From Verrucomicrobiota bacterium (GTDB lineage: Bacteria > Verrucomicrobiota > Verrucomicrobiia > Limisphaerales > UBA11358), in the NCBI GenBank assembly GCA_028873125.1, contig JAGWMQ010000001.1, positions 36,744 through 100,743 on the forward strand: DNA of 64,000 bases, written 5' to 3'. This document shows positions 14,257 through 52,851 of this stretch, in pieces. The first letter of the stretch is position 1. Each line of letters starts with the position of its first letter. Below the pieces are notes generated by a model. The model ran no database searches. It had not been told where the DNA came from and saw only the letters and a program-made list of their open reading frames with translations. A program made the translations under genes and the position numbers.

Positions 14257-16710
14257 ATGAATGAGAAGTTCCAAACTTCAAGTTCCGGGTTCCAAAAAGT
14301 GCCAAACTCCAAGCTCCAGTCCGGCTCCGGTTTGAAGTTTGGAACTTGGAACTTCTTTGGAATTTGGTGTTTGGAACTTGGAATTTTGTCTTCCGTTTCC
14401 GCCGCCGGGGTTGGTCCCACCAATCTCCCGCCGCCGGCGCCGGTCAAAATCAATTTCGATCGCGACGTGCGCCCGATTTTTGAAGGCAGTTGTTTCCGCT
14501 GCCACGGCCCGAGGGAACCGAAAAACGATTTCCGCCTCGATGTCCGCTCCCAGGCGGTGGAAGGCGGGGACGCCAACACGAACGACATCGTCCCGGGCCA
14601 CAGCGACCGGAGCGAACTCATCCGCTACGTGTCCGGGCTTGACAAACGGGTCCATATGCCGCCGCGCGACAGCGGATTGCCGGCGCTGACGCGTGAGCAG
14701 GTCGCCGTGCTGGAGGCGTGGATTGATCAAGGCGCGCCCTGGGGCACGAACGCCGGACCGCCGGCGCTCGTCTTCGCCCTCACACCGACGCTGCGCGGCT
14801 TCGACGCGCACGGCGACCGCGGAAAATTCCGCGAACTGGAAGGCGTTCCCGAAGGCTTTGGCGGCGGCGTGGAAAATTTTTTCAGCCGGCAACGGAACGC
14901 CGGCGCCGTCCTGACGGTGGAAGGCCGCGCCCTGCTCCCCGAACGCGACCTCAAGCTCGCGCTCAAGCTGGAAAAGGACGACATCGGTTTCGTGGACGGC
15001 GGTTTTGAAACGTGGCGGAAGTATTACGACGACACCGGCGGGTATTATCCGGGATTCACCCCGTCCACGTATTCCCCGGGTCGGGACCTCCACGTTGACA
15101 TGGGACGCGCCTGGATGGATTTCGGACTGACCCTGCCCCGCGCGCCGAAAGTGGTGCTCGGTTACGAATATCAATCGCGCCAAGGCAACGAATCCACGCT
15201 GGCGTGGGGAACGGTCCTCCAAACCAGCGGCGCCAAAAACATTTATCCCAATGTCCAAGGCGTGAGCGAACACACGCACCTTTTGAAACTTGAACTCACA
15301 GACGAATGGCTTGGCTGGAACATTGAGGACCGCGCGCGCGGGACATTTTACCGGCTCGGCGAATCGCGCAACGACACGCCCGCCATCCCGATCCTGTCCG
15401 GCGGCACGCAGCGCCTGGATCAAAAGGTGACCTACACGCGGGGCGCGAACACCTTCCGCGTCGAGAGGCAGGTCACGGACTGGTGGCGCGTCTCCGCCGG
15501 CAGCCTGTATTCTCGCTACGATGGCACGACGCTTTTCAATCTGACCGCCGCGGATGTCTCCTGCGCGCCGGTTCCGGGCGCCTATTGGCGGTCGGAAGGC
15601 GTCACTCTGGAACGCGATTCGCGCGTGGCCAGTCTCGCCAGCCTGTTCCTTCCGGTGAAGGGCTTTAGCCTCTCGGCCGCCGGCCAGGCCGAGTGGACGC
15701 ACGAGAAGGGGTTTGGCGACGTGGCGCTGGATTTTGGCGACCCCAATCCTGCGTTTCCCGGCACGGTGAGTGCGAACCAGAACCAGACCGAATTTTCGGA
15801 GAATCTCGACGCTCAATTCAACCGGCTGCCCCACACCGTGGTGTTCGCCGAGACGCGGCTGCAACAGGAGAGCATCGGACAATCCGACGAGGCGGACAAC
15901 GCCATCGCCTTCCTGGACGGCGCCGGGGCCATTGGCCAGCGCACCGACGCGCTCAATCATCTTTACGACACACGCGCCGGCTTCACCTCCTCGCCGTGGT
16001 CGTGGCTGGAATTTGGCGGCCACTACCGCCGCCGCGACAGCGACACCGGCTACGACCATTCCAGCGCGCAACCCGGCAATGGCTATCCGGGCTTCATCAA
16101 TCACCGCGACATCGCGATGGACGAGATCGCGGGGCGGCTGGCGCTGCGTCCGGCGTTCTGGTTGAGCGGGCGGCTGACCTACGCCTGGAACGTGTCGCGT
16201 TATTCCGCCGCAACCGCGGGAGCGACCAATTTTGACGGCAGCCTCGCCGCCCCCGGCGGCCCCCTTCTGGCCGGACGCACCGCATCGCACGTTGCCGGAC
16301 TGAATCTCATGATCACTCCCGCGCAAAGGTTTTACTTTTCCGGCGCGTTCACCTACAGCTTCTCCCGGACGACCACGGCGGACAACGGCGATGCCGCCGT
16401 CGTGCCCTATCGCGGCGACGTTTTTACCGTCAGCGCCGGCGCGGGTCTTGTGCTGGACGCCAGGACAGACTTGAACGCCACCTATGTATTTTCGCGGTCA
16501 GCCTACGGGCAAAACAATACGGCGGGGCTGCCCTTGGGCCTCGATTTCACGCGCCACGAACTGCTCGTGGGCGTCACGCGGCAACTGTCCAAATGCTGGT
16601 CCGGCGCGCTGCGTTACCGCTTTTCCCAATACGCCGAACCCAGTTCAGGCGGGGCGAACGACTTCACGGCCCACGGGATTTTCGCCACGCTCAATTATAA
16701 ATGGCCCTGA
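14257..16710 (+). CDS. PSCyt1-type monohaem cytochrome domain fused to a large putative outer-membrane beta-barrel
   Basis: DVRPIFEGSCFRCHGP...MPP...LEAWIDQGAPW matches the Planctomycete cytochrome C (PSCyt1) domain. The remaining ~650 aa show alternating hydrophobic strand patterns rich in Y/G/S/T, ending in GIFATLNYKWP (aromatic OMP-like terminus). The ATG abuts the stop of the multihaem gene. Confidence 0.7.
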   Translation: MNEKFQTSSSGFQKVPNSKLQSGSGLKFGTWNFFGIWCLELGILSSVSAAGVGPTNLPPPAPVKINFDRDVRPIFEGSCFRCHGPREPKNDFRLDVRSQAVEGGDANTNDIVPGHSDRSELIRYVSGLDKRVHMPPRDSGLPALTREQVAVLEAWIDQGAPWGTNAGPPALVFALTPTLRGFDAHGDRGKFRELEGVPEGFGGGVENFFSRQRNAGAVLTVEGRALLPERDLKLALKLEKDDIGFVDGGFETWRKYYDDTGGYYPGFTPSTYSPGRDLHVDMGRAWMDFGLTLPRAPKVVLGYEYQSRQGNESTLAWGTVLQTSGAKNIYPNVQGVSEHTHLLKLELTDEWLGWNIEDRARGTFYRLGESRNDTPAIPILSGGTQRLDQKVTYTRGANTFRVERQVTDWWRVSAGSLYSRYDGTTLFNLTAADVSCAPVPGAYWRSEGVTLERDSRVASLASLFLPVKGFSLSAAGQAEWTHEKGFGDVALDFGDPNPAFPGTVSANQNQTEFSENLDAQFNRLPHTVVFAETRLQQESIGQSDEADNAIAFLDGAGAIGQRTDALNHLYDTRAGFTSSPWSWLEFGGHYRRRDSDTGYDHSSAQPGNGYPGFINHRDIAMDEIAGRLALRPAFWLSGRLTYAWNVSRYSAATAGATNFDGSLAAPGGPLLAGRTASHVAGLNLMITPAQRFYFSGAFTYSFSRTTTADNGDAAVVPYRGDVFTVSAGAGLVLDARTDLNATYVFSRSAYGQNNTAGLPLGLDFTRHELLVGVTRQLSKCWSGALRYRFSQYAEPSSGGANDFTAHGIFATLNYKWP
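14267..14386. repeat. Heptamer-periodic palindromic repeat (CCAA-type arm then TTGG-type arm)
   Basis: Left arm gttccaaacttcaagttccgggttccaaaaag...ctccaagctccag. Right arm tttgaagtttggaacttggaacttctttggaatttggtgtttggaacttggaatt. The arms are mutually complementary in several registers. Confidence 0.85.
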
Positions 16711-16809
16711 TGATTCCATCAGAAACGGCACAAGGAAAATAAACCGTCCGGCATGAGGCAAAAACCGCATTGCCGCCGGGATGCGGCTGTGGAATGTTCT
16801 TCCGAAGTC

Positions 16810-17583
16810 ATGAGCGAGTTCAAATTCGCCTGTCCGGTGTGCGGCCAGCACATCCGCTGCGATTCGTCACAGAGCGGCTCGGCGATGGGATGTCCGACGT
16901 GCTTCCAGAAGATCATCGCTCCGAACGCCCCTGCGACCGACGCCTCCAAATACATCCTGACGGGCACCAAGGCCGGCGAACGGCCTTCCCTGAAAATGGC
17001 CGGCCAGGGCCCTGCTCCCGGCCCGGTCTCCCGGGGGGTTCCAGGCGCGGTCGTGGTCGTGGTCCTGCTGCTCGGCATCGCGGCGGCAGTGGCGTTTGTG
17101 TATCACGGAACCCTTTTCAAACCGGCACCGGCCGGCGACGTCAAATGGACGCTGAACCTGGGCGCCATGACCATTCCAGACGCGCCCGCCGCCGGACGGA
17201 TTCATGGAACGGATTTCACCTGCCGGCGGGCGGTGCTGGAAGGCGGCGGATTGACGCTGCGTCAGGGCGGGCACGGCGTGCCGGACCTCAGCGTGACCAT
17301 TTACCTGCACGCCAAGCGCAGCGCGGTCCTGGCGGGACAAAATATCCGCATCGCCGCCAATTTCGCCGACGCGCCGCCCGTCCGCTTGCGCTGCAAGGAA
17401 ATCCCGCCGCAAATGAAGACGGAGACGTTCGAAGGCGGCTACGCCCTGCGCCTGGAATTTGGCGCCTTGGCCGGCAAACGGCTGCCGGGAAGAATCTACC
17501 TGTCCACGCCGGACCCGATGAAAAGCTACGTGGCCGGAACGTTCAACGCCGAAATCCGCCAGCCCAAGCCAAAGCGGCCGTGA
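16810..17583 (+). CDS. Zinc-ribbon / single-TM protein of unknown function
   Basis: FACPVCGQHIRCDSSQSGSAMGCPTCFQKI (CxxC...CxxC), then TM VVVVVLLLGIAAAVAFV and a ~150-aa C-terminal domain. The start is set at ATG 16810. Confidence 0.6.
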   Translation: MSEFKFACPVCGQHIRCDSSQSGSAMGCPTCFQKIIAPNAPATDASKYILTGTKAGERPSLKMAGQGPAPGPVSRGVPGAVVVVVLLLGIAAAVAFVYHGTLFKPAPAGDVKWTLNLGAMTIPDAPAAGRIHGTDFTCRRAVLEGGGLTLRQGGHGVPDLSVTIYLHAKRSAVLAGQNIRIAANFADAPPVRLRCKEIPPQMKTETFEGGYALRLEFGALAGKRLPGRIYLSTPDPMKSYVAGTFNAEIRQPKPKRP

Positions 17584-17708
17584 CTTGTGGCCATCCTACA
17601 ATGACCGAGGAATTTCAAATGCCGAACTCCCAACAAAAATCCCCTTGGCCGCTCCGGCCTGGCCATTCGTGAGTCACCGGGATTTCGGAACCGTCATTCC
17701 ACAAGCCA

Positions 17709-18221
17709 ATGTCTAAAACGCATCGTCCGGCGGCCGCGATTATCAGTTTGCTGGCCGGGAGAGGGCAAACCCTGGCGCTCGCCGAATCCTGTACGGGCGG
17801 CTGCCTTGCGCACCGGCTGACCAACGTGCCGGGGGCCTCAACCATTTTTCTTGGCGGCGTGGTGGCTTACAGCAATGCCGCCAAGATGAAATTCCTGGGG
17901 GTGCGGCCGGCAACGTTGCGGCGCCACGGCGCGGTCAGCGCGGCGACCGCACGCGAAATGGCCGAGGGCGCGCGAAAAAGATTCGGCGCGGACTTTGCCG
18001 TCGCCGTCACCGGGGTGGCCGGCCCGGGCGGCGGATCCAAGGCCAAACCGGTGGGAACGGTTTTCCTGGCGTTCGCCGGGGCGTCCGGGGTCCGGGTGCG
18101 GCGCCAATTCAACCCCGGCACTCGCGGGGCGTTCAAGAGAATCACCACCAACCAGGCCTGGGAAATGTTGCGCTCGCGCCTGGCCGAGCCCGAGGCCGCC
18201 CGCCGCCGCGGGAAGCCTTGA
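17709..18221 (+). CDS. CinA C-terminal domain protein (nicotinamide-nucleotide amidohydrolase PncC-like)
   Basis: LALAESCTGGCLAHRLTNVPGAS, GGVVAYSN and AVAVTGVAGPGGG are CinA/PncC hallmarks. Confidence 0.85.
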   Translation: MSKTHRPAAAIISLLAGRGQTLALAESCTGGCLAHRLTNVPGASTIFLGGVVAYSNAAKMKFLGVRPATLRRHGAVSAATAREMAEGARKRFGADFAVAVTGVAGPGGGSKAKPVGTVFLAFAGASGVRVRRQFNPGTRGAFKRITTNQAWEMLRSRLAEPEAARRRGKP

Positions 18222-18315
18222 CTTCCGGAGCCGCCCCGCGGCGACGGCGGATCCAAACGCGCAACTTTGGCCCGACTCCGGAGTTCAACGGGTAAGACTC
18301 AACCCGGAAAATTTT

Positions 18316-18873
18316 ATGCGCCCGCTCTGCGTCACTTTCATCGTTGCCGGCTGCTGGTTTGCCTTGGCGTCCGGCGCCCAGGAGGCCACCAACGCGCCCA
18401 AAACCGAAATCGAGAACTTCGAGGCGCAGACCAACGCGGTCATCATCAAGGGCTTCGGCCAGGTCGGTTCGGTGACGACGGACGCGGGCGTCATTTCCGT
18501 GCGCTGCAAGGAATCCGACGATGTGAGCGCCGGTCGGAAGGCCTACGGCCTGACCGTGGTCTTCGATGGTAACCGCCGCGAGCACGAACGGGAGGTGGTG
18601 GACGATGACGAAATGGATTCCCTGCTAAACGGTCTGGATTATCTGGGCAAAATCACCTACGACGCGACGCCGTTGCCCGGTTTCGAGGCCACTTACACCA
18701 CCCGCTCCGGCCTGCGGATTGTGGCCTACAGCAGCCGGCGCCAGAGCGGCATCCAGAAATTTCTGGAATTTGGCGGCGACCCGCGAATTTCCCTCACCCC
18801 CGATCAACTGGCGCAATTTCAAAAATTGATCGAGCAGGCCAAAAAGACTCTGGATTCGCTGAAGGCGCGGTAA
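18316..18873 (+). CDS. Secreted hypothetical protein
   Basis: ATG at 18316 gives the signal peptide MRPLCVTFIVAGCWFALASGAQE. The upstream part of ORF 17995..18873 overlaps the CinA gene and is Arg/Pro-rich noise. Confidence 0.55.
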   Translation: MRPLCVTFIVAGCWFALASGAQEATNAPKTEIENFEAQTNAVIIKGFGQVGSVTTDAGVISVRCKESDDVSAGRKAYGLTVVFDGNRREHEREVVDDDEMDSLLNGLDYLGKITYDATPLPGFEATYTTRSGLRIVAYSSRRQSGIQKFLEFGGDPRISLTPDQLAQFQKLIEQAKKTLDSLKAR

Positions 18874-18875
18874 CT

Positions 18876-20528
18876 CTATTTCCGCAAAACGGTGTCGCGC
18901 TGTGCCCACTCGGGGCGGGCGTCGGGATAATCCAGATTGTAGTGCAGCCCGCGACTTTCGGGACGCTGCTGGGCGCAGCGAACAATCACCTCCGCCACCG
19001 TGGCGATGTTGCGCAATTCCAGCAGGTCGGCCGTCACGATGAAATTCCAGTAGTATTCCTGGATTTCCTCCTGCAGGTTGGCGATGCGCTTGGCCGCGCG
19101 CGCCAGGCGCTTGTTGGTCCGCACGATGCCCACGTAGTCCCACATGCAGCGGCGGATTTCGTCCCAGTTGTGCGAGACCACGACCAGTTCGTCGACGTTG
19201 GCCGCCTGCCCCGGCTGCCACAGGGGAATCGTCGCCTCGATCTTCGGCTCGGGATGGGAAAGAATCGTTCCGGCGGCGCGATGGGCGCACACCAACGCCT
19301 CCAACAGCGAATTGCTGGCCAGCCGGTTCGCGCCGTGCAGGCCCGTGCAGGCCACTTCGCCCACCGCAAAGAGCCCGGCGACGTCCGTCTGGCCGTCCAC
19401 GGTCGTCACCACGCCGCCGCACTGGTAATGCGCCGCAGGCACAATGGGAACCGGCTCCTTGGTGATGTCCAGGCCGTAACGCAGGCAGGTTTGATAAATG
19501 TTCGGAAAGCGGTCCATGATGAAGCGCGCCGGTTTGTGCGTGATGTCCAGCCACACGTGCTCAGCGCCGCTCCGTTTCATCTCGCTGTCAATCGCCCGCG
19601 CCACCACGTCGCGCGGCGCGAGCGATTTCAGGGGATGATACGCGTCCATGAACTCGCGGCCTTCAATGGTTTTGAGCACGCCGCCCTCGCCGCGGACCGC
19701 CTCGCTGATGAGGAAGGATTTCGCCCGCGGATGATACAGACAGGTCGGATGAAACTGGACGAACTCCATGTTGGCCAGGGTCGCCCCCGCGCGATACGCC
19801 ATGGCCACGCCGTCGCCGGTCGCAATGTCGGGATTGGTCGTGTAGAGATAGACCTTGCCGCAGCCGCCCGTGGCCAGCAGGGTGACCGGCGCGGTGAACG
19901 CCCAGACCCGCCCGTTTTTCTTGTCGAAGACGTAAGCGCCGAGGCAGCGATTGCCGTTTTTCTGCCCGATTTTCCGGCTGGTGATCAGATCAATCGCCAG
20001 GTGGTTTTCAAAAATCTGGATGTTCGGCTGCCTGGAAATCGCGTTGAGCAGCGCGCGCTCGATCTCCCGCCCGGTCACGTCCTTGGCGTGCAGGATGCGC
20101 CGCTTCGAATGGCCGCCCTCGCGCCCCAGGTCCAGTTCCCTGCCGCCGTCCCCGCCAGGGGCCTCGCGCTCGGAAAACTTCATCCCCAGTTCCATCAATT
20201 CCCGGATCCGCGCCGGGCCTTCCTCGACAATCGTGCGCACGACGGCTTCCTTGCACAGGCCCGCGCCCGCCGCGAGCGTGTCGCGCACGTGCAGATCAAA
20301 GGAGTCTTCCTTGCTGGTCACCGAGGCGATGCCGCCCTGGGCGTAGTTCGTGTTGGATTCGGCGCGGTCCTTTTTGGTGACGATGGCCACGCGCCCGCGC
20401 GGCGCGGCCTTGAGCGCGAAGGAAAGCCCGGCGATGCCGCTGCCCAGAACGAGAAAATCAAATGGTTTCACCAGACGGAAAATAAACGCAAAGGCCCAAA
20501 GGCGCGAAGAAATAATCGGTATTGTCAA
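18876..20528 (-). CDS. nadB: L-aspartate oxidase
   Basis: FAD fold [27 protein letters not shown] and [12 protein letters not shown]. The start is uncertain: TTG at 20528, or GTG at 20471 ([12 protein letters not shown]), which gives a more typical N-terminus. Confidence 0.92.
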
Positions 20529-20556
20529 ACCGGCGAGACGGTGTTACCAATAGGGG

Positions 20557-20814
20557 ATGCAAACATTGACGTTGAAAGTTCCCGACGACCTGGCGGAACG
20601 GCTGGACCGCCGGGCGCGTGACTTGAACCGCTCCAAATCCGAAATTGTCCGGCAGGCGCTGGCGGCGCAGCTCAATGGCGGAGGGAATTTTGAAAGCCTC
20701 CTCGACCGGGCCGGTGATTTGGTCGGCAAATATGCGGGCAGCAAACATTCGAGCGATAAACGCAATCTCAAGACCCTCGGGCTTAAAGGCCTCGGACGAT
20801 GGAAACGGTCCTGA
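20557..20814 (+). CDS. Ribbon-helix-helix (CopG-like) antitoxin
   Basis: MQTLTLKVPDDLAERLDRRARDLNRSKSEIVRQAL is an RHH motif. The gene overlaps the downstream PIN gene by 16 nt. Confidence 0.75.
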   Translation: MQTLTLKVPDDLAERLDRRARDLNRSKSEIVRQALAAQLNGGGNFESLLDRAGDLVGKYAGSKHSSDKRNLKTLGLKGLGRWKRS

Positions 20815-22263: not shown

Positions 22264-22272
22264 TCGAATATT

Positions 22273-22734: not shown

Positions 22735-22757
22735 CTCTCAACCGATTCAACGAATCT

Positions 22758-24206: not shown

Positions 24207-24272
24207 GACACGAATTTCCGCGAATTCACACGAATTCAATTTTCATCGGTGAAAATTCGTGTAATTCGTGTC
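24207..24272. repeat. AATTCGYG-family palindromic element between sufB and sufC
   Basis: gacacgaatttccgcgaattcacacgaattcaattttcatcggtgaaaattcgtgtaattcgtgtc. The CACGAATT units on the left pair with the AATTCGTG units on the right. Confidence 0.85.
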
Positions 24273-25057: not shown

Positions 25058-25314
25058 GGGCATGGCCGGCTTCACGGACGGGCTGCAGGGCAACTCACCA
25101 TCGCCTCCACCGCGCTTTCCACGCTGATGCCGGCCATCCAGCGGCAGTCCATCCGTCATCTTCGGCAATTTGATTGCGAGTCCGAACGATGACGTTCGCC
25201 GGGAAAACCATCGTCGTCGTCACGCTGCTGGCCAATCAGATTCGGCAGATCGTCTGCCGGGCCGATTCCTCGCAACCCGGGTCCTTCGTGAATTGGCGCT
25301 GGCTTCCCGCTGCA

Positions 25315-25348
25315 CTTTGGACTTTAGACTTTGGACTTTGGACTCTAG
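25315..25348. repeat. Heptamer repeat array (TTTGGAC-type), ending 11 nt before the murJ ATG
   Basis: ctttgga ctttaga ctttgga ctttgga ctctag, the reverse complement of the GTCCAAA units seen in uvrC. Confidence 0.8.
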
Positions 25349-27285: not shown

Positions 27286-28395
27286 TCAGCCCGATTGCGG
27301 CTCGACGACGATTTTCAACGAATCGTCCGCCGGCCGCGCCGCCAGCGCAATGGCCGCCGGCGCCTGTTCCAGCGGAAACCGGTGGGTGATCAAATGCCGC
27401 GCATTGAGTCGGCGGGAAAAAACCAGGCGTGCCGCCTCGGCCTGCAGGGTGAGGTCCGCCGAATAACTGCCCAGCAAATCCTTTTCCTCCATGCAGATGG
27501 CCGCCGGGTCAATGCCCAGGGTCCCGCCGTGCCGGGTGTGGGCGAACAACAAAACCTGTCCGCCGCCCCGCACGGCCCGGAGCGCCTGCCGCGTCGCTTC
27601 GTCGGAAGGAACAGCGATAATTGCCGCGTCCAACGTCCCTGGCCCAAAGCCCAATCTCCCCCCTGCGCCGCGTCGTTCCCCAAACTTGGGATTTGGCACT
27701 TCGAGCTTGGAACTTGGAACCAACTTCGTCCATTCCGCGCCCCATCGTCTGGCCAGCCGCAGACGCGACGCCAGCAAATCCGTCGCCAGGACCCGCGCGC
27801 CCCTTAATTTGAGCAGCCGCGTGAACATCAGACCAATCGGCCCCTGCCCCGCCACCAGCACGCGGTCGCCTCGCAAAAGGTTCAGGCGATGAATCGCCTT
27901 CAAGACGGTGTTGACCGGTTCGAGCAGCGCGCCCTCCTCAAAGGAATTCTTCGCCGGAATCTTCACCAGGCCCGGCAATGCGAAGTCCATCACCCGGACG
28001 TACTCGGCAAAGCCGCCGCCGGCCGGCTCGAATCCCGCCGTGATGCCCGTGCGCCGGTACTGCGGACACTGGGCGAAAGCGCGGTGCCGGCAAAAATGGC
28101 ACTGCAAACACGGCACGTGATGATGCAACGCCACCCGGTCGCCCGCTTTGAACCCCAACTTCGAACTTCCAACTCCCAGCTTCACAATTGTCCCGGCCGT
28201 TTCGTGCCCGAAAATGCGCGGTGGCGCCGGCGCGCCCGACTGGATTTTTTTGATGTCCGTCGGGCAGACACCGCACACGGCCACCCGGACCAGCAATTCG
28301 TTGGGGCCGATCCGCGGCACGGGCACCGACTCGACGCGCACGTCATTGACGCCGCGATACACCGCCGCCCGCATCGTTTTGGGAATGGCAAGCAC
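27286..28395 (-). CDS. Zinc-dependent medium-chain dehydrogenase/reductase, carrying repeat-derived in-frame segments
   Basis: VCGVCPTDIKK, GHETAGTIV, GDRVALHHHVPCLQCHFCR (structural Zn Cys cluster) and VAGQGPIGL (Rossmann fold). The segments LVPSSKLEVPNPKFGE and GVGSSKLG are encoded by heptamer-repeat DNA. Confidence 0.85.
   Translation of the reverse strand: MLAIPKTMRAAVYRGVNDVRVESVPVPRIGPNELLVRVAVCGVCPTDIKKIQSGAPAPPRIFGHETAGTIVKLGVGSSKLGFKAGDRVALHHHVPCLQCHFCRHRAFAQCPQYRRTGITAGFEPAGGGFAEYVRVMDFALPGLVKIPAKNSFEEGALLEPVNTVLKAIHRLNLLRGDRVLVAGQGPIGLMFTRLLKLRGARVLATDLLASRLRLARRWGAEWTKLVPSSKLEVPNPKFGERRGAGGRLGFGPGTLDAAIIAVPSDEATRQALRAVRGGGQVLLFAHTRHGGTLGIDPAAICMEEKDLLGSYSADLTLQAEAARLVFSRRLNARHLITHRFPLEQAPAAIALAARPADDSLKIVVEPQSG
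27682..27728. repeat. Heptamer repeat copy inside the dehydrogenase CDS
   Basis: aaacttgggatttggcacttcgagcttggaacttggaaccaacttcg, translated on the minus strand as VPSSKLEVPNPKF. Confidence 0.75.
28153..28183. repeat. Heptamer repeat copy inside the dehydrogenase CDS
   Basis: ccccaacttcgaacttccaactcccagcttc. It shares an identical 20-mer aacttccaactcccagcttc (28164-28183) with uvrC positions 45432-45451. Confidence 0.75.
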
Positions 28396-28491: not shown

Positions 28492-28522
28492 AAAATTCGT
28501 GCCCATTCGTGAAATTCGTGTC
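28492..28522. repeat. AATTCGYG-family repeat copy
   Basis: aaaattcgtgcccattcgtgaaattcgtgtc. Confidence 0.7.
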
Positions 28523-28662: not shown

Positions 28663-28691
28663 GATTCGTCCCAATTCGTGCAATTCGCGTC
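28663..28691. repeat. AATTCGYG-family repeat copy
   Basis: gattcgtcccaattcgtgcaattcgcgtc. Confidence 0.7.
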
Positions 28692-42938: not shown

Positions 42939-42948
42939 ATCAACTTTT

Positions 42949-44244: not shown

Positions 44245-45924
44245 GTGACCGAGACCATCCGCAAGAAGCTGGGAACGCTCCCGCACAAGCCGGGCATCTA
44301 CCTGATGAAGGACCGGTTCGGCACGGTCATTTACGTCGGCAAGGCGCGCGACCTGCGCAAACGCGTCAGCCAGTATTTCCATCCGTCGCGGCGGATGGGC
44401 TGGGACCTGAAGTTCAACGCCCTGGTCGAGGCGATTTGCGATTTTGATTTCCACGTCGTCCGCAGCGAACCGGAGGCGTATCTGCTCGAAGGCAGGCTCA
44501 TCAAGGAGTTTCATCCGCGCTACAACGTGAGCTTTCGCGACGACAAGCGGTTTCTGCTGCTCAAGGTCAATTTGAACGACCCGATCCCGAACTTCACTCT
44601 GACGCGGCTCAAGAAGGACGACGGCGCGCGTTACTTCGGACCCTTCTCGAATTCCGGCGCGTTGCGCAACACGCTGGCGCTGGTGCGGCGGCAGTTCAAT
44701 CTCCGCGGCTGCCGCGCCTTCACGCCCGGCGGGGGCGATTACAAGCACTGCCTCTACGCGCACCTCAAATACTGCACCGCGCCCTGCATCGGCAACGTGA
44801 CGCGCGAACAATACCTGGAGCAGGTCAAGGCCGCGTGCGATTTCATCGAAGGCCAATGCGCCGAGATGAAGGATCAACTGGAAACCGAGATGAAAAAGGC
44901 CGCCGCGGCGCAGGATTTCGAGAAGGCGGCCGCGCTGCGCGACCTGCTCCGCGACCTGAAGGAGACGACGCGCAAGGAGCAGAAATTCGAGCGCGTGCCC
45001 TACACCCTGCCGCTGGCGGTGGATCCGGGACGCGACCTGGCCGAACTGGCGGCGGCGCTGGGCCTGCCCGCGCCGCCGCGGCGCATCGAAGGCTTCGACA
45101 TCTCCAACATCAGCGGCACCTTCGCCGTCGCCTCGCTGGTCAGTTTCAAGACCGGCCGGCCCGACCGCGCCAACTACCGGCGGTTCAAGATCAAAACGGT
45201 CGAGGGCCAGGACGATTTTGCGAGCATGGCCGAGGTGGTGCGGCGGCGTTACACGCGGCTGCTGAACGAGTCCAAAGTCCAAAGTCCAAAGTCCGGAAGC
45301 GAACACGGCGAAGCCATTCCGGAGGAATTGCAGAAGCTCGTGGACGTGACCAGCAGGAAGGTGCGGCGCCAGAGTTGGAAACCCAAAGCGGCAACACCCG
45401 AAGCTCTAACGGGCGGAATTTCCCAACCTCCAACTTCCAACTCCCAGCTTCGAACTCCCGGCCCCCAACTGCCCGACTTGATTCTGATTGACGGCGGCAA
45501 GGGGCAATTGAGCGCCGCGTGCGAGGAACTCAAAAAGCTTGGCCTCGAAAGAATTCCCGTCATCGGGCTGGCCAAGGAATTCGAGGAGATTTACCGGCCC
45601 GGCGCAAGTCAGCCGCTCCGGTTGGGCTTGGACCATCCGGCGGTGAAATTGCTTCAGCGCATTCGCGACGAGTGCCATCGCGTGGCCAATTCCTACAACG
45701 CGCAACTGCGGCTCAAGCGCATTTCGGAAAGCGTGCTGGACGAATTTCCCGGCATCGGCGAAGCGCGCAAGCAGGCCCTGCTGAAGAAATTCGGCTCGGT
45801 GCGCCGCCTGCAATTGGCGACGGTGGAGCAGATCAGGGAAGTAGCCGGCTTTGGCGGCCAGACGGCGGCGGAATTGAAGAAGTTCCTGGAGGCGCGGTCG
45901 GTGATCACTCCAAACGCCGCCTGA
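44245..45924 (+). CDS. uvrC: Excinuclease ABC subunit C, with a ~50-60-aa repeat-bounded insertion
   Basis: GIY-YIG motifs (PGIYLMKD, VIYVGKARDLRKRV), UVR domain, RNase-H-like LPDLILIDGGKGQL and C-terminal HhH. The extra segment lies between RRYTRLLNE and LPDLILIDGG. Confidence 0.95.
   Translation: MTETIRKKLGTLPHKPGIYLMKDRFGTVIYVGKARDLRKRVSQYFHPSRRMGWDLKFNALVEAICDFDFHVVRSEPEAYLLEGRLIKEFHPRYNVSFRDDKRFLLLKVNLNDPIPNFTLTRLKKDDGARYFGPFSNSGALRNTLALVRRQFNLRGCRAFTPGGGDYKHCLYAHLKYCTAPCIGNVTREQYLEQVKAACDFIEGQCAEMKDQLETEMKKAAAAQDFEKAAALRDLLRDLKETTRKEQKFERVPYTLPLAVDPGRDLAELAAALGLPAPPRRIEGFDISNISGTFAVASLVSFKTGRPDRANYRRFKIKTVEGQDDFASMAEVVRRRYTRLLNESKVQSPKSGSEHGEAIPEELQKLVDVTSRKVRRQSWKPKAATPEALTGGISQPPTSNSQLRTPGPQLPDLILIDGGKGQLSAACEELKKLGLERIPVIGLAKEFEEIYRPGASQPLRLGLDHPAVKLLQRIRDECHRVANSYNAQLRLKRISESVLDEFPGIGEARKQALLKKFGSVRRLQLATVEQIREVAGFGGQTAAELKKFLEARSVITPNAA
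45270..45294. repeat. Heptamer repeat (GTCCAAA x3.5) inside uvrC
   Basis: gtccaaagtccaaagtccaaagtcc, translated as KVQSPKS. Confidence 0.85.
45421..45459. repeat. Heptamer repeat (TTCCAAC-type) inside uvrC
   Basis: tcccaacctccaacttccaactcccagcttcgaactccc, translated as QPPTSNSQLRTP. Confidence 0.85.
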
Positions 45925-46198: not shown

Positions 46199-46413
46199 TG
46201 AAGTTTGGCGCGCAGTTGATGCTTGGCGGCTTCCCAGTCCAGCAATGTGTCTTCGCCGGTGGCGAGCTTGCGTTCCCGTTCGGCCAGGACGGCGCCGTGC
46301 CATTCCGGAGAAGGAACATCACGCTCATTTTGGGAGAGCTCGCTCCAAAGGTCTTCCATCAGCCGGAGTTTTTCCGGCAAGGACATCTGCCGCAAGTCCA
46401 CCGTCGCATTCAT
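46195..46413 (-). CDS. Addiction-module antitoxin component (TIGR02574-like)
   Basis: MSLPEKLRLMEDLWSEL...PEWH matches the putative addiction module component pattern. It lies immediately upstream of the toxin. Confidence 0.7.
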   Translation of the reverse strand: MNATVDLRQMSLPEKLRLMEDLWSELSQNERDVPSPEWHGAVLAERERKLATGEDTLLDWEAAKHQLRAKLQ

Positions 46414-46509
46414 GGTGGAAATTTACGCTGCGAATGGAATTCGGCAAGCCCGCTTTTTTCAAGAGGTTCCGTCCAGCAGTAAGGCGGCGGCGGAACTGAA
46501 CGTTCAAGT

Positions 46510-47040
46510 TCAACCCGGCGAAGCCGTTTCGATTTCTTCAGCCGGTCGTTTAGGCCGAATCAGATTTCTGAAAAAGAAAATCCAATAAATCGGCGCGAAA
46601 AAAGTGTAGGCGCTCAAGGAGATCAACAAATACCCGGCAATGACGAGCGGACTTGCGCGTAGCTTGCCTTCCACGCCGTTTCTCAGGACTTCACCTTCAG
46701 AAAAGAGGCAGACGAAGGGCATCAAATTGTTATAGGATCCAACAGCGCTGCCGCAATGTTCGCAAAACCACCCATCGGTCGTTCGCGGGTCAAAACAGTG
46801 GTGGCAGACCTCGACGGCGTCCGGCTCATGCAGTTTTCTTTCAAGGTTGGCGTCCCACGGATCAGGCGTCCATGGCGCTTGCCGAACCCACATGAGGAGA
46901 CGCCAAAGCGCGCCGAGCGCCAGGCCGACCAAGCCCAGTTGACCCACGAGGAGGTTCGGGTCGCTCACGTCCGCCATAGGAAGCTGTTTCAACTTCCCAT
47001 TGGGGATTCTCAATGTCAAGAGCGCGACGAAGACGTTCAC
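46510..47040 (-). CDS. Membrane protein with a central zinc-ribbon, translationally coupled to uvrB
   Basis: TM ([23 protein letters not shown]), CHHCF...FCEHCG, then TM ([26 protein letters not shown]). GTG 47040 overlaps the uvrB TGA. An alternative ATG is at 46977. Confidence 0.5.
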
Positions 47041-49157
47041 TTTCGCATTTGTTTCAATTTCCTGTAATGGACACGTTTCGATTGAAATCTTTCGCCACCG
47101 ACCATTCCTTTGAGTTCCTTGATCTGGTCGCGCAGCAGGGCGGCCTTTTCAAACTGCAATTCCCCGGCGGCGGCGAGCATTTCCTTTTCCAGTTCGCCGA
47201 TGGTTTCGGTCAGGTCCACATCCATCTTCGCGTCACGCAAAACTCCGTGGGCTTCCTCGCGTCGGGATTCATAGACGACGAGGCTTTCTTCGACGGCACG
47301 GCTGACGCTGCGCGGGGTGATGTGGTGCTCGGCGTTGTAGGCCAGTTGCTTCTCGCGGCGATACTTCGAGACGGCCAGGAATTTCTTGATGCTCTCGGTC
47401 ATCACGTCGGCATACAGAATTACTTCGCCGTGGAGATGGCGCGCGGCGCGGCCGGCGGTCTGGATCAAACTGGTTTCGCTGCGCAGAAACCCCTCCTTGT
47501 CCGCGTCCAAAATCGCCACCAGCGACACCTCGGGCAGGTCCAGCCCCTCGCGGAGCAGGTTGATGCCGACGAGCACGTCGAACTCGCCCTTGCGCAGCGC
47601 GCGCAACACCTCCACGCGCTCGATGGCGTCAATCTCGCTGTGCAGATACTGGACGCGGACGCCGATGTCGCGCAGGTAATCGGTGAGTTCCTCGGCGGTG
47701 CGCTTGGTCAGGGTGGTGACCAGGACGCGCTCCTTCTGGTCGGCGCGCTTGCGGCATTCCTCGATGAGGTCGTCAATCTGGCCCTGGAGCGGCTTGAGCG
47801 TGACTTGCGGATCCACCAGTCCGGTCGGGCGCACCACCAATTCGACCACGCCGGGCCTCCTTTGGTAGGGTGAACCGTCCTCCGCGCGCCGTTCGGATCG
47901 CGTGCTGGAGGCGGCGGGCAAGGGACTGCCCGCCCTGCCTAAACCGTTTTGCCGCGCCCATTCCAATTCCCGCGCGGCCGGGGTGGCGCTCACGTAAATG
48001 GTCTGGCCCTGCATGGCCTGAAATTCCGTGAACTTGAGCGGCCGATTGTCCAGCGCGCTGGGCAGGCGGAATCCGTATTCCACCAGGACGGTCTTGCGCG
48101 ACCGGTCGCCTTCATACATGGCGCCGATTTGCGGCACGGTGGCGTGCGATTCGTCAATCACCACCAGATAATCCTTCGGGAAAAAATCAATGACCGTGGC
48201 CGGCCGCGAGCCGGGCGGCCGGCCGGCAATGTGGCGCGAATAGTTCTCGATGCCGGAGCAGACGCCCATTTCCTCCATCATCTCCAGGTCGAATTCCGTC
48301 CGCTGTTTGATGCGCTGGGCTTCGAGCAGCTTGCCGTTTTTCTCGAACCAGGCGATGCGCTCGCCGAGTTCCTCGCGGATGGTCAGGATCGCCCGCTTCA
48401 TCTTTTCGCCGGTGGTCACGAATTGTTTGGCGGGAAAGACCGTGGCGGCGTCCAGGCCCTCGGTTTTGTTTCCCGTGAGGGGCTCGAAACGCGTGAGACG
48501 CTCGATTTCGTCGCCGAAAAATTCGACGCGCAGACCGTCCTCGCGTCCGGCGGGGCGGACCTCCACCGTGTCGCCGCGCACGCGGAAGTGACCGCGCTCG
48601 AAGGCGATGTCGTTGCGCTCGTATTGCAAGTCCACCAGGCGCGCCAGGAATTGCTCGCGGGACGGGCCGCCGCCGACGCGGATGGGAATGACCATGGCCT
48701 CGTAATCCTCCTTGCTGCCAATGCCGTAGATGCAGGAGACGCTGGCCACCACCACCACGTCGCGCCGCGAAAACAGCGAGCTCATCGTCGAGAGCCGCAG
48801 CCGCTCGATCTCCTCGTTGCGGCTGGAATCCTTCTCGATGAAGGTGTCGGTGCGCGGGATGTAGGCTTCGGGCTGGTAGTAGTCGAAGTAGCTGACGAAG
48901 TATTCGACGGCGTTGTTCGGGAAAAAGCCCTTGAACTCGGCGTAGAGCTGCGCGGCCAGGGTTTTGTTGTGGGAAATGACCAGGGTGGGTTTGTCCACCT
49001 TTTGGATGACGTTGGCGACGGTGAACGTCTTGCCGGAGCCGGTGACGCCGAGCAGCACCTGGTGTTGGGCGCCGGACACGATGCCTTCCGCCAGCTTCGC
49101 AATGGCTTGCGGCTGGTCGCCGGCGGGCTGGTAGGGCGCGACGAGGTCGAACATCAA
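47037..49157 (-). CDS. uvrB: Excinuclease ABC subunit B, with a ~32-aa GC-rich in-frame insertion
   Basis: [51 protein letters not shown] and the C-terminal UVR motif. Confidence 0.95.
47856..47950. repeat. GC-rich hairpin-containing element inserted in frame in uvrB
   Basis: Encodes [34 protein letters not shown] between the conserved ELE and [11 protein letters not shown]. Contains the perfect hairpin GGCGGGCA-agggac-TGCCCGCC at 47913-47934. Confidence 0.6.
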
Positions 49158-49266
49158 AACAGTTTAGGACGGATCCGCCCACAGTCAACGAGGCGCGGAT
49201 TTGAAACTTGCGCCAGGCGGATGGCTCAATGAAGATTTGCCGGAATTCACTGCGCGCCGTCGAATT

Positions 49267-50265
49267 ATGATCCGGTCGTTTGCCTTTACGACGCAAGGGA
49301 AGCTGCATACCGAGGACGTTGATCTGTTCCTCATGCCGACGCTGTTGGCGGACACGAACCTGTTTCTGTGGGTGGATTTGGAGAATCCGACGCCGGAGGA
49401 GGTGCAGTCCGTCCTGGCCGGGGTGTTTCATTTCCATCCCCTGTCCATCGAAGACTGCGTCACCGTCAGCTCCTCGCCCAAGGTCGAGGAATACACGCCG
49501 AAGGAGGGCGACCTGTTCACGCCCTATCTGTTCCTGGTGATTCACGCGGTGGATTACAGCCGGCAGGACGAAAAGTTCGCCACCAGCGAGCTGGATTTTT
49601 TTCTCGGCAAAAATTTTCTCGTCACCTATCACCAAAAACCGCTGCGAACCGTGTCGTTGATTGAAGAGCGCTGCGCGAAAGGCGCAATGCAGATTGCGCG
49701 CGCGCCGGACCGGGTCGCGCATTCGCTGCTCGACGCGCTCGTGGACGGTTACAAACCGGCGCTGGACGAACTGGCGCTGGATATCGCCGACGTGGAGCAA
49801 ACGGTCTTGCAGCATCCCGGCAAGGAGATGTTCCACCGTGTTCTGCAAATCAAGAAAAAAGTGCTGCATCTGCGGCAGATCATCGGGCCGCAGAGCGAGG
49901 TGCTGGCGCGGTTCGCCGCCGGGGAATTCAAACTCATCCGCCCGCATCTGGTGCCGTATTTTCGCGACGTTTATGATGCCTTGCACCGCATCGGCGAACA
50001 GGCGCAGACCTACACCGATTCGCTCACCGGCATCCTGCAGGTGTATCTCAACATGTCGTCCAACCAGACCGGGGAGGTCGTCAAGCTGCTGACGCTGATC
50101 ACCGTTATCACGACGCCGCTGATGATGATCGGCACCTGGTATGGAATGAATTTCCATGACATGCCCGAATTAAGCTGGAAACATGGCTATACCGTTGCGG
50201 GCGGGGTCACGCTGCTCTCCACGCTCGCGACCTATTTGTATTTCAAAAAGAAAAAATGGTTCTGA
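49267..50265 (+). CDS. corA: Magnesium/cobalt transporter CorA
   Basis: C-terminal YGMNFHDMPEL (GMN motif) with two TM segments. The start is at ATG 49267. Confidence 0.9.
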   Translation: MIRSFAFTTQGKLHTEDVDLFLMPTLLADTNLFLWVDLENPTPEEVQSVLAGVFHFHPLSIEDCVTVSSSPKVEEYTPKEGDLFTPYLFLVIHAVDYSRQDEKFATSELDFFLGKNFLVTYHQKPLRTVSLIEERCAKGAMQIARAPDRVAHSLLDALVDGYKPALDELALDIADVEQTVLQHPGKEMFHRVLQIKKKVLHLRQIIGPQSEVLARFAAGEFKLIRPHLVPYFRDVYDALHRIGEQAQTYTDSLTGILQVYLNMSSNQTGEVVKLLTLITVITTPLMMIGTWYGMNFHDMPELSWKHGYTVAGGVTLLSTLATYLYFKKKKWF

Positions 50266-50274
50266 ATCGTTGAA

Positions 50275-51153
50275 ATGAAAACCGGTTTCGCCTCGGCAAT
50301 TTTGCTTTTGTCGCTCATGCTCTCCCGCGCCGAAATGCAAGCCCCCATCCCGCTCTGGCCCAACGGCGCGCCCGGCGCGCTGGGCACCAACGCCTGGGAC
50401 ATCCCCACCCTCACGCCGTATCTGCCCGACCCGGCCGGGGCCGGCGGCGCGGCGATGGTGATCTGCCCGGGCGGCGGTTATGCGCACCTGGCGCCGCACG
50501 AGGGCCGGGATTACGCCCTTTGGCTCAACCAGCATGGCGTCACCGGCTTCGTGCTCAAATACCGGCTCGGCTCGCACGGCTACCGTTATCCGGCCGAGTT
50601 CGAGGACGTGACGCGCGCGATGCGCTGGGTGCGGGCGCATGCGGCGGATTACCGGATTGACCCGCAGCGCATCGGCATCATGGGGTCCTCGGCGGGGGGC
50701 CACCTGGCGGCGACGCTGCTGACGCATTTCGATGCCGGCAACCCGGAGGCGGACGATCCCGTGGCGCGGCAAAGCTCGCGGCCGGATTTGGGCATTTTGT
50801 GTTACGCCGTCATCACCATGGGCAAATACACCCATCAAGGCTCCAAGGAGAATCTGCTGGGCAAGCATCCGTCGCCAAGACTGGTGAAACTGCTTTCCGA
50901 CGAACTCCAGGTGACGGGCGACACCCCGCAATGTTTCATCTGGTGCACCTACGAGGACAAGACCGTGCCGATGGAAAACAGCCTGATGTTTGCCGAGGCC
51001 CTGCGGAAACATCACGTGCCGTTTGCCCTGCACATTTATCAAAACGGCGGCCACGGCATGGGACTGGCGGACAAGCCGCCGTTCGCGCATCCGCATCCGT
51101 GGGCGAATGATTGCCTGGTGTGGCTCAAACACCACGACTTTCTGAACGACTGA
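50275..51153 (+). CDS. Secreted alpha/beta-hydrolase (esterase/lipase-like)
   Basis: Signal peptide, oxyanion-region CPGGGY, nucleophile elbow GSSAGGH, late D and H (NGGHGMG). Confidence 0.85.
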   Translation: MKTGFASAILLLSLMLSRAEMQAPIPLWPNGAPGALGTNAWDIPTLTPYLPDPAGAGGAAMVICPGGGYAHLAPHEGRDYALWLNQHGVTGFVLKYRLGSHGYRYPAEFEDVTRAMRWVRAHAADYRIDPQRIGIMGSSAGGHLAATLLTHFDAGNPEADDPVARQSSRPDLGILCYAVITMGKYTHQGSKENLLGKHPSPRLVKLLSDELQVTGDTPQCFIWCTYEDKTVPMENSLMFAEALRKHHVPFALHIYQNGGHGMGLADKPPFAHPHPWANDCLVWLKHHDFLND

Positions 51154-51159
51154 GCGGCC

Positions 51160-52710
51160 CTATGGTTTTGATGCCGCGGCTGGCGGCGCGTTGGTCGGGG
51201 CGGGCGTGGTGGCCGGGGGCGGGGCGTTGGTTTCCGCCGGCAGTCCCAGTTGCGTGCGCAAAACGGCGCGCGCGGCGTAGGACAACATGGGTTGTTGCGG
51301 ACTCAACAGGCGGTTCACAACCATGCGGTTGATCTGGTCGAAGGGCGGCAGGGGGATGCGCTCGCGCGTCGCGGCCAACGGGCCGATGTTGGCGTTGTAA
51401 TTCTGATAAACCTTGATCGCCAACCGTTTGAATCCATCGGCGCGGGCGTCCTGCCCGATGGCCAGGTTATAGTACGACCGGGCGAGCAGTCCCTGGACGG
51501 CGGCGGTCACCTCGTCCTGCGAGGTTTGGTTGATGTTTTCCTGGACGCAGGCGACGGCGTACTGGTCCAAGGTCAGGTTGCGCGGCAAGGAGTTGGGGTC
51601 GCCGTCAATGATGGGCTTGTCGGGAAATTTTTGGGCGAGGTATTGAAACCATTTTTGCGCCTGGGCGATCCGGTTGTCCTGGTAAAGATAATAAACGGCG
51701 TCGCGCAGGAAATTCCGTTGGGCCGTGAGGATGCCATTCTTCTGGCCCGGATCGGATTCCTGGGCATACATGGTCTCGTAGGCCTCGTTGACCTTGGGGA
51801 TGATGTCCAGGTTGGGCGCCAGGGCATAGGTGTGCTCGAAGGGATCGGCGATGATGTGCCCGTGATGGAAAGTCTGGAGCATGGACTGGAAGATGACGCG
51901 CCGAAGCGACATCACGTCGAACGCCTTGTTCATGCCGGGATGCGCCTCGGCCTGTTCCAGACCCTTGGCGGCCCAGTAGATGGCGCTCGCCTCCGGCAGC
52001 CGCCAGTCGAACGGCCCCCATTCTTCGTCCACGTGCTTCACGTATTGCGGGTCCAACTTGAATTCTTCGTGGAGGCGCAGCGCGTTGGTTCTGGCCTCGG
52101 CGGTTTGCGGATGGATCAACTGCTCATAATTCGTTCCGTGGGGGCCGAAAAACGGCGTCATTTCCTCGGCCCATTCCTTTTTGTAATACATGTCCGCGTC
52201 GTCCATGTTCTGCCCCAGCTTGCTTTGGAAAATCCAGGCCAGTTGTTGGTAAAGGAGCGCGTTGTCGGGGTTGTACTTCAGGGCCTTGTCGCGCAACAAC
52301 CGCATGCCCGCCTGCACCCAGCGCCAGCGGTCGGAATAATCGCCGGGACCGTTCTCCTTGAACTTGACCGAGATGTTCCAGGCCATGTTCCAGGCTTCAA
52401 ACGCCCAGACCTGGGCGAAATGCGGCTCCAGGTCGGTGATCCAGTCGGCCAGTTGCACCATCTCGAAATACTTGTCCTCCAGTTGCAGATCATTGGCGCG
52501 GATCCAGAGGAAATTGGAAATCAATCCCCGGAACCCGCCCAGCGCGACGGTGGTGAAGGCCAGCAGCGGCGGGGCGTCCTTCAACGGCGCCGCGCGCGTC
52601 AGCCCCAGTTGCTGTCGGTCGGAGTTGAGGGACTTTTGGACCTGGCTGCCGCCGGCGAGCAGAACGGCGGCCAGCAGCAGCAGGATGAATTTCCTGGCGC
52701 GCCCGGTCAT
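51160..52710 (-). CDS. Membrane-anchored helical protein of unknown function (third gene of the ABC operon)
   Basis: ATG 52710 gives MTGRARKFILLLLAAVLLAGG, then a second TM, then ~450 aa of helical-repeat-like sequence and a Pro/Ala tail. The ORF's upstream 19 codons are heptamer-repeat DNA. Confidence 0.65.
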   Translation of the reverse strand: MTGRARKFILLLLAAVLLAGGSQVQKSLNSDRQQLGLTRAAPLKDAPPLLAFTTVALGGFRGLISNFLWIRANDLQLEDKYFEMVQLADWITDLEPHFAQVWAFEAWNMAWNISVKFKENGPGDYSDRWRWVQAGMRLLRDKALKYNPDNALLYQQLAWIFQSKLGQNMDDADMYYKKEWAEEMTPFFGPHGTNYEQLIHPQTAEARTNALRLHEEFKLDPQYVKHVDEEWGPFDWRLPEASAIYWAAKGLEQAEAHPGMNKAFDVMSLRRVIFQSMLQTFHHGHIIADPFEHTYALAPNLDIIPKVNEAYETMYAQESDPGQKNGILTAQRNFLRDAVYYLYQDNRIAQAQKWFQYLAQKFPDKPIIDGDPNSLPRNLTLDQYAVACVQENINQTSQDEVTAAVQGLLARSYYNLAIGQDARADGFKRLAIKVYQNYNANIGPLAATRERIPLPPFDQINRMVVNRLLSPQQPMLSYAARAVLRTQLGLPAETNAPPPATTPAPTNAPPAAASKP

Positions 52711-52721
52711 GGTCGAGGCAA

Positions 52722-52851
52722 CCTCCAAGTTCCAGGTTCCAAAGAAGCGCCAAGTTCCAAGTTCCAAGTTCCAAACCGCGCCGCGCGATGGCGGCTTTGG
52801 GAGTTTGGAATTTGAGACTTCCTTGGAACTTGGAATTTGGAGCTTGGAACC
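52722..52851. repeat. Heptamer-periodic palindromic repeat between the ABC permease gene and the downstream gene
   Basis: Left arm ctccaagttccaggttccaaagaagcgccaagttccaagttccaagttccaaa; ~20-nt GC-rich loop; right arm ctttgggagtttggaatttgagacttccttggaacttggaatttggagcttggaacc. Confidence 0.9.

Follow-up and report, generated by a model that had tools for sequence, protein, structure and literature searches.

What are the seven-nucleotide repeats that recur along an ordinary stretch of a bacterial chromosome, partly between its genes and partly inside them? The stretch analysed here, referred to as the window, comprises 64,000 nt of a soil Verrucomicrobia chromosome, Limisphaerales-like, with a G+C content of about 62%; the closest homologues of its proteins are labelled Verrucomicrobiae, Verrucomicrobiia or Limisphaerales. 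A sequence-only reading had described a dispersed family of tandem TTGGAAC and GTCCAAA units in this DNA, without assigning it to the known class of heptanucleotide repeats (PMC4679880, PMC4692102). The family is real. We consider it probable that its arrays are heptanucleotide simple-sequence repeats, STRR-like, of a Limisphaerales-like clade, and that they are mainly selfish or neutral passengers shaped by slippage. The class is known; the present variant of it also forms composite palindromes and lies in frame in housekeeping genes.

The repeat family and its two forms

At two or fewer mismatches, TTGGANNTTGGANNTTGGA matches the window 19 times, against 0.17 matches expected from dinucleotide-preserving shuffles. 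No shuffle gets to 19, and every match lies inside one of the seven reported sites, at which the TTGGANN arrays with their period of 7 nt are clustered. Tandem Repeats Finder returned period-7 arrays at 14339-14386, 25314-25344, 27683-27720, 28155-28183, 45269-45294, 45423-45456, 52724-52742, 52750-52774 and 52822-52850. The units are contiguous and head-to-tail, and three of these nine intervals are 100% perfect. Three unit types exist side by side in the window, GTTCCAA, GTCCAAA and CTTCCAA; the sequence-only reading had named the first two (as TTGGAAC/GTTCCAA and GTCCAAA/TTTGGAC), which are both present, and had missed the third. All seven copies that it listed can be read directly, but its additional degenerate copy at 17611-17640 is unsupported, with no match at two or fewer mismatches and no convincing periodicity. 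Four of the seven sites lie within open reading frames (ORFs), two in uvrC and two in an alcohol dehydrogenase (ADH) gene, all in frame, and one further site overlaps an ORF at its 5' end. The mostly intergenic location of heptanucleotide simple-sequence repeats is therefore not seen for the window arrays.

The family has two forms. In the first, 3-5 units make up a solo array; in the second, a CCAA array, a G+C-rich loop and a TTGG array follow each other in a composite palindrome of ~100-140 nt that forms a long hairpin. Solo arrays outnumber paired ones in the sampled loci (134 vs 17). The arm order, CCAA before TTGG, is a bias only (13 vs 4 in the sampled loci), and a strict rule of this kind was dropped. 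The two largest window copies, which we call elements A and B, had been described as palindromic, and this was borne out by their inverted arrays and by RNA folding. Both were delimited by direct reading, Tandem Repeats Finder, folding and the pattern scan, and neither is assigned to a strand.

Element A (14266-14389, 124 nt) starts with a CCAA-type arm (~14266-14322) consisting of the units GTTCCAA, ACTTCAA, GTTCCGG and ACTCCAA and the irregular unit GTTCCAAAAAGTGCCAA. After a short loop (~14323-14330), the TTGG-type arm (14331-14389) carries the irregular unit TTGGAACTTCTTTGGAA at 14346-14362. The minimum free energy (MFE) of the RNA (14257-14395) is -56.1 kcal/mol, with a z-score of -6.0. 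Element B (52722-52851, 130 nt) has a CCAA-type arm at 52722-52776, with a perfect (CCAAGTT)x3.6 array and an irregular unit at 52737-52753, a G+C-rich loop (~52777-52797) and a TTGG-type arm at 52798-52851, with an irregular unit at 52812-52828. Its RNA (52712-52856) has an MFE of -64.9 kcal/mol and a z-score of -6.3. No shuffle was as stable as either element, and no intrinsic terminator was found at either hairpin.

The irregular 11-nt unit TTGRNNCTTCYTTGGAA has three matches in the window, in the right arm of A and in both arms of B, against 0.01 expected. It is without a match in 327 other loci and thus marks an element of the source genome only. Degenerate forms of it occur in the left arm of A and in the ADH hairpin described below, and the loops of A and B are unrelated by alignment. 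Because elements A and B share this unit, we read the palindromes as copies of a single composite element.

Filled and empty sites at gene junctions and inside genes

The elements occur at sites which are empty in relatives. Element B occupies the whole spacer between two genes, from the stop codon of the upstream minus-strand gene (52853-52855) to the ATG of the downstream gene (52710-52708). In three relatives (63-66% identity) in which the gene order is kept, the two genes overlap by ATGA or are 19 nt apart, and no repeat is present. In the window, the ancestral sequence ending in AATCAATGAAG is kept; it is followed by a 141-nt spacer filled by element B and then by a new ATG at 52710. The element ends with GGAGG, 11 nt ahead of this ATG. 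ATGA is found on both flanks of element B, and nothing comparable exists around element A. The database product of the downstream gene has 522 residues, six more than a start at the ATG 52710 gives (52708-52728), which implies that the gene caller used a TTG inside the last repeat unit.

Element A starts 10 nt past the stop codon of a multihaem cytochrome c gene (14254-14256), directly after ATGAATGAGAAG, which is probably the ancestral start of the following gene. This host gene (14257-16710, plus strand) encodes a PSCyt1-domain protein, and its ORF, which gives 817 residues from 14257, is open through element A. About 43 N-terminal codons cross the element; another possible start is a TTG at 14332. 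Where the relatives have an ordinary signal peptide, the ORF reads FGTWNFFGIWCLELGIL, which comes from the TTGG arm, and then SSVSAAG; FGTWNFFGIWCLELGIL may now be the hydrophobic core of the PSCyt1 signal peptide. In eight relatives that keep the cytochrome-PSCyt1 order, the spacer is short, the signal peptide is normal and the element is absent. A metagenome scan with the PSCyt1 protein gave relatives at no more than 56% identity, so that presence or absence can be read at this site but exact insertion boundaries cannot.

Hairpins built from other heptamers are found at this same cytochrome c/PSCyt1 junction in two further loci. L132 (1409-1540) has a (CGTGATG)n/(ATCACGC)n hairpin with an RNA MFE of -68 kcal/mol, and L133 (1-130) has a (TCCGAAA)n/(TTTCGGA)n hairpin with -64 kcal/mol. 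In both, the sole in-frame starts of the downstream gene lie inside or beside the heptamer hairpins. A separate observation concerns the relative L130 (~3040-3260), which carries a different insert at the junction, with GCAGATTGGGAAATCTGCGTTACGG-type sequence and the peptide RSADWKSAIRQIGKSALR. This suggests that the junction takes up repeats time and again.

The uvrC gene (44245-45924, plus strand) carries an array-rich insert that is flanked by RRRYTRLL and PDLILIDGG and lies in the RNase H-like endonuclease domain. The insert begins with a perfect (GTCCAAA)x3.7 array (45269-45296, plus strand), which is in frame and encodes ESKVQSPKS. It ends with a degenerate CTTCCAA-type array (45421-45470, plus strand; CCTCCAA, CTTCCAA, CTCCCAG, CTTCGAA, CTCCCGG and further units) that encodes QPPTSNSQLRTPGPQ. 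The 62 inserted residues (344-405) have no counterpart in the solved UvrC structure 3c65, and in a set of 120 orthologues this linker has between 40 and 102 residues. In relative L121 (84% identity), a perfect GTCCAAA array is present at the same uvrC site, with 4.3 instead of 3.7 units, and the downstream CTTCCAA-type array differs from that of the window by a 21-nt (3-unit) indel.

The ADH gene (27286-28395, minus strand) belongs to the Zn-dependent alcohol/sorbitol dehydrogenase family and has two sites. The copy at 27682-27728, which had been listed as a plain one, does exist; it turned out to belong, as the TTGG arm on the forward strand, to a third palindrome, which has decayed and has its CCAA arm at 27630-27660. 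This element C (27630-27728, minus strand) lies in frame within the gene. Read in the sense direction, a GTTCCAA-type arm (27728-27682) encodes KLVPSSKLEVPNPKFG and is followed by the loop and by a degenerate TTGG-type arm (27660-27630) with the peptide LGFGPGTLD. The fold is barely beyond that of shuffles (z -1.8), and element C was rejected as a stable RNA structure. At the position of this decayed GTTCCAA-type hairpin, the ADH genes of L202 and L203 have an in-frame (GTCCAAA)4-loop-(TTTGGAC)3, and that of L204 has a short segment and no array. In an AlphaFold model, the ADH insert (~219-247) has no secondary structure and a confidence score (pLDDT) below 50 at residues 224-239, and it is flanked by strands at 215-218 and 248-253. 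Element C is thus predicted to encode an unstructured loop between two beta strands.

The second ADH site (28153-28183, minus strand) is a three-unit array (sense AGTTGGA, AGTTCGA, AGTTGGG) in the segment between HETAG and GDRV. This copy has two mismatches and lies in a part of the ADH fold that is of normal length. Orthologues have (AATCGGA)x4 (L202) or (CATTCGC)x4 (L203) at this position. The site falls into length classes of 25, 27 and 29 residues, with partners of 32, 34 and 36 residues that are longer by seven residues (3 units, 21 nt).

Pentapeptides derived from GTCCAAA occur in 28 of 120 UvrC and 20 of 120 ADH orthologues, compared with none of 120 members of a control family. Other repeat-derived peptides were noticed at the same places, in the ADH orthologues P0122-P0240 (the segment from RLxLAxxFGA to AVPS) and in the linker of the UvrC orthologues P0002-P0120. 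Their families are GQASRLS...GDRRDACPT, GRAELPLRP...AEHRRP, HPMGEGGRRPGEG, EDGGLKMEDG...SSILHPPSS and GRARSPSEP...RRAGDSAPYQ. As judged from these sequences, the permissive loops of ADH and UvrC are apparently general sinks for hairpin repeats in the clade. In L203, a (CCTGAAG)n array at 11135-11156 provides the ADH gene with its TGA stop, and CAACCCT and AACACTA arrays lie in the spacer beyond.

In the sufC-murJ spacer (25314-25344), the plus strand carries a solo array, (TTTGGAC)x4.4, in which one of the units reads TTTAGAC. Its end is 16 nt from the ATG of murJ (25361).

The family is not confined to the window, as GTCCAAA arrays are also present in the relatives L121, L202, L203 and L325, the last of which has in-frame arrays in two further genes. 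Nor are the encoded segments ordinary conserved sequence: orthologues carry or lack the arrays, and the peptides are hence variable insertions. Peptides of the CCAA strand are hydrophilic and rich in Ser, Pro, Lys and Gln (VQSPKSK, VPSSKFQ, LPTSNFQ), and those of the TTGG strand are hydrophobic (FGLWTLD, LELGTWN, LEVGSWK).

Beyond the clade, TTGGANN was surveyed across phyla with four units and one genome per species. Among the matches listed are Cyanobacteria (TTGGATT in Nostoc, Nodularia and Dolichospermum), Acidobacteriota, Chloroflexota, Verrucomicrobiota, Planctomycetota, Patescibacteria, Bacteroidota and others, and TTGGANN arrays are common among the listed viral contigs, too. Many other heptamer units co-occur with TTGGANN in the listed loci. 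In the listed loci from many phyla, at least 195 arrays have period 7 and at most 22 have any one of the other periods from 4 to 12. In a sample which was not selected for repeats (82 sequences, 455 kb), 17 arrays have period 7, two have period 6, five have period 8 and none has a period of 9 or more.

The genes around the repeats are those of an ordinary chromosomal stretch and include argH, an ECF sigma factor gene, SCO1, the multihaem cytochrome c and PSCyt1 genes, cinA, nadB, panC, fur, sufBC, murJ, the Zn-dependent ADH gene, infC, an RND efflux pump, uvrC, uvrB and corA. Among 40 window ORFs scanned, no mobility or defence gene was found, and no domain of a transposase (including Y1 transposases), RAYT, reverse transcriptase, integrase or Cas protein. 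Rfam families and tRNAs gave no matches in the window. With neither spacers between the units nor Cas domains, the window has no CRISPR-like organisation; the sequence-only reading had likewise reported no CRISPR-like spacers and no transposase.

Origin of the arrays and rival explanations

We propose that a copy-and-paste or templated process, not encoded in the window, would seed the palindromes at new sites, after which array length would change in 7-nt steps by slipped-strand mispairing. Within ORFs, only changes that keep the frame in sum would survive, typically 3 units (21 nt, 7 codons). Only stop-free units would persist there, since a tandem heptamer is read in three frames in turn. 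The hydrophilic peptides of the CCAA strand would be tolerated in linkers and surface loops. Side effects may include intercistronic RNA hairpins that uncouple translation, new start sites and low-complexity peptide insertions.

The sequence-only reading had stressed that the units are free of stop codons in all six frames. This is arithmetically correct for TTGGAAC and GTCCAAA but not a special property, because tandem repetition leaves both strands free of stops for 50.4% of all heptamers (68% when weighted by the window composition, 37% among those with 3 G+C). Stop-freeness as a distinguishing trait was rejected on these grounds. A tandem heptamer runs through all three frames every 21 nt, and arrays in ORFs need to be stop-free for this reason. 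Intergenic arrays of relatives (CGTGATG, GAATGAC, GTTGAGG) do contain stops. Stop-freeness is a survival filter for copies in ORFs, not a design.

Several points weigh against slippage-shaped passengers. A family-specific palindrome that fills 141 nt at an ATGA site is beyond the reach of slippage alone; a transposase, a clear target-site duplication and conserved termini were not found in the window or at elements A and B. At least five genomes, with flanks diverged by ~20-35%, keep GTCCAAA perfect at different loci, which hints at sequence-specific maintenance or selection that a neutral model does not explain. Three lineages have hairpins of different units at the same cytochrome/PSCyt1 junction, and this could reflect a function of the site and not chance. 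Furthermore, the statistics cover the 64-kb window of the source genome. Possibly, though we hold it to be a minority case, the arrays are what an undescribed process, either copy-and-paste or templated repair and specific for the sequence, leaves behind across a Verrucomicrobia clade in which it is active. It would perhaps extend wider, because TTGGANN arrays occur in many phyla and viral contigs. In the same minority case, a trans-acting factor would recognise the 7-nt unit, seed arrays at new sites, with a preference for positions just within gene starts and for permissive loops, and keep units such as GTCCAAA perfect at unlinked loci despite the 20-35% divergence of their flanks.

The palindromes could also be functional intercistronic RNA hairpins similar to REP/BIME, which shield the upstream mRNA against 3' exonucleases, or set cistron ratios by uncoupling translation and masking or exposing the downstream start. 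Elements A and B do each fill the spacer between co-directional genes and fold well beyond shuffles, the GGAGG of element B is 11 nt from the new ATG, and the different-unit hairpins of L132 and L133 recur at one junction. Most relatives, however, lack a hairpin at either junction and have the ATGA overlap at site B, the same family occurs inside ORFs and as solo arrays that are unable to fold, and neither a terminator-like tail nor an Rfam family was found at the hairpins, so that we regard such a function as unlikely. Still less probable are classical MITEs (transposable elements of the miniature inverted-repeat type), defective derivatives of insertion sequences which are moved in trans by a transposase from elsewhere in the genome and whose terminal inverted repeats would be the arms. 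The filled and empty sites, the palindromic structure of ~130 nt with the irregular unit common to A and B and the ATGA on both flanks of B would all suit them. Yet no clear target duplication is seen at element A, and the ATGA at B is required anyway as a start codon. The termini are neither defined nor conserved, the arms being inverted arrays without fixed ends; the loops are unrelated, lengths vary and solo arrays dominate. No transposase was found among the 40 window ORFs scanned.

Contingency loci (phase variation), in which gain or loss of a 7-nt unit shifts the frame of uvrC or ADH or the expression of murJ, are very unlikely. In favour, seven nucleotides do not divide by three, arrays are found in ORFs and, in one case, 16 nt before a start codon, and copy numbers differ between relatives; but high slippage rates would call for more than 3-5 units, housekeeping genes are the hosts, and all observed orthologues are in frame with length classes in whole 21-nt steps. 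The arrays as regulatory DNA, with the tandem GGAAC serving as -35 boxes of an extracytoplasmic function (ECF) sigma factor or the heptamers as sites for a protein that binds direct repeats, are a highly improbable reading. The former idea had been raised from sequence alone, and the window does contain an ECF-type sigma factor gene (8692-9216) and one GGAAC-N16-CGTT match adjoining element A (14373-14397). A start site at the latter would, though, drop the signal peptide of the downstream gene. GGAAC-N15-18-CGTY occurs six times in the window against 7.7 expected, and we rejected the promoter reading for this missing enrichment, for the arrays in both orientations inside ORFs and for the sister units GTCCAAA and CTTCCAA that lack GGAAC. 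Apart from the repeats, GGAACTTTTTCTTCCCTCGTTCGTC at 10444-10468 is just upstream of an ORF at 10481 and ~1.2 kb from the ECF sigma gene, and is plausibly a real ECF-type promoter that is unrelated to them. That there is no repeat element at all, only chance similarity or ordinary conserved coding sequence, is hardly tenable. The copy at 28153-28183 does match only with two mismatches, and the part of the ADH fold to which it aligns is a normal one, and the copy at 17611 is not real; the excess of matches over expectation, the perfect tandem units, the intergenic copies and the filled and empty orthologous sites refute this explanation at six of the seven sites.

Significance and comparison with known repeat systems

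The clade is a tractable case for a question raised in 2007, namely why bacteria favour 7-nt repeats among long microsatellites and how one unit spreads through a genome. It offers filled and empty sites at defined junctions, UvrC and ADH arrays that are traceable via hundreds of orthologues and a diagnostic irregular unit. For annotation, the repeats mislead gene callers, as is seen from the hairpin that the ORF at 14257 crosses and from the TTG in a repeat that the 52.7-kb gene has as the start of its database protein. They add low-complexity peptides to enzymes and can split translationally coupled gene pairs. The PSCyt1 signal-peptide core derived from a TTGG arm would, if true, be a small example of repeat-born coding sequence.

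REP sequences are extragenic palindromes of 20-40 nt that bear GTAG or CGTC as a tag and depend on an association with RAYT transposases (PMC3733652). The window palindromes resemble REP/BIME as hairpin-forming repeats that are abundant and often lie between co-directional genes. They differ by their length of 100-140 nt, by having no tag, by being intragenic in some cases and by the lack of a RAYT gene in the window. Two other repeats were seen in the window. A 28-nt inverted repeat (GCTGGTAGGGCGGCGCTGCTGCGCCGCC / GGCTGAGCGGCAGCGCAGCCCTACCGGC) at 619-684 has a GTAGGGC...GCCCTAC tag; it is similar to the REP superfamily with GTAG tags and not related to the heptamers. A second repeat family consists of AATTCGTG/CACGAATT units 9-10 nt apart (24208-24271, 28493-28520, 28664-28687 and 54246-54331); it partly forms hairpins, e.g., GACACGAATTTCCGCGAATTCACACGAATTC...GAAAATTCGTGTAATTCGTGTC between sufB and sufC, and lies in spacers or gene ends throughout.

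According to the literature, no class of long simple-sequence repeats is more abundant in many bacteria than that of the heptanucleotides (Mrazek et al. 2007, as summarised in PMC4679880 and PMC4692102), and units with a multiple of three nucleotides are the likeliest ones in coding regions (as summarised in PMC4679880). The window family shares with this class the head-to-tail units in few to several copies, the dispersed arrays, the preference for period 7 and the variation of length among relatives. Unlike the class, it has about half of its window sites within conserved genes, in frame, and some of its arrays are part of composite palindromes. When TTGGAAC, TTGGATT and GTCCAAA were searched for in the literature as exact units, nothing relevant was found.

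Among individual families, GGGAATC arrays of Xanthomonas sometimes form inverted pairs and differ in length between relatives, and TAACTGA arrays of Beggiatoaceae lie near start codons (PMC4679880, PMC4692102). Like these, the window arrays are lineage-specific, often near start codons, occasionally paired into stem-loops and variable in length at conserved positions. GGGAATC is, however, prone to form G-quadruplexes, TAACTGA has stops on the forward strand, and both are overwhelmingly intergenic, whereas the window units are stop-free on both strands and occur in ORFs. The cyanobacterial STRR heptamers were described in Calothrix PCC 7601 (PMC4692102). They are, similar to our arrays, tandem heptamers characteristic of a genome, and the cyanobacterial (TTGGATT)n fits the TTGGANN pattern. 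GTTCCAA, GTCCAAA and CTTCCAA do not match the units of STRR1-3, which we take to be CCCCAGT, TTGGTCA and CAACAGT. The window family thus has other units, and it belongs to another phylum with a G+C-rich host; in-frame residence and hairpin pairs do not feature in the STRR description.

A parallel for life inside genes is given by the Rickettsia palindromic elements (RPEs), which were described as in-frame inserts in unrelated housekeeping genes (Ogata et al. 2000, as reviewed in PMC10969869). The sequence-only reading had drawn this comparison, and it is supported by the orthologues of ADH and UvrC and by two gene junctions, where filled as well as empty sites exist. Palindromes of ~100-150 nt (124 nt for A, 130 nt for B), in-frame insertion into unrelated housekeeping genes, compatibility with the protein fold and the lack of a linked transposase are common to both. 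The ADH hairpin is present in the window, L202 and L203 and not in L204, and uvrC has its own insert. Both are compatible with the fold as surface inserts, the former as a loop in the model and the latter as a segment absent from 3c65. RPE families, in contrast, are complex conserved sequences and not tandem heptamers; from the heptamer composition and the host phylum, sequence homology of the window family to one of them would not be expected. The window family, which lives in another host clade, adds solo arrays and slippage.

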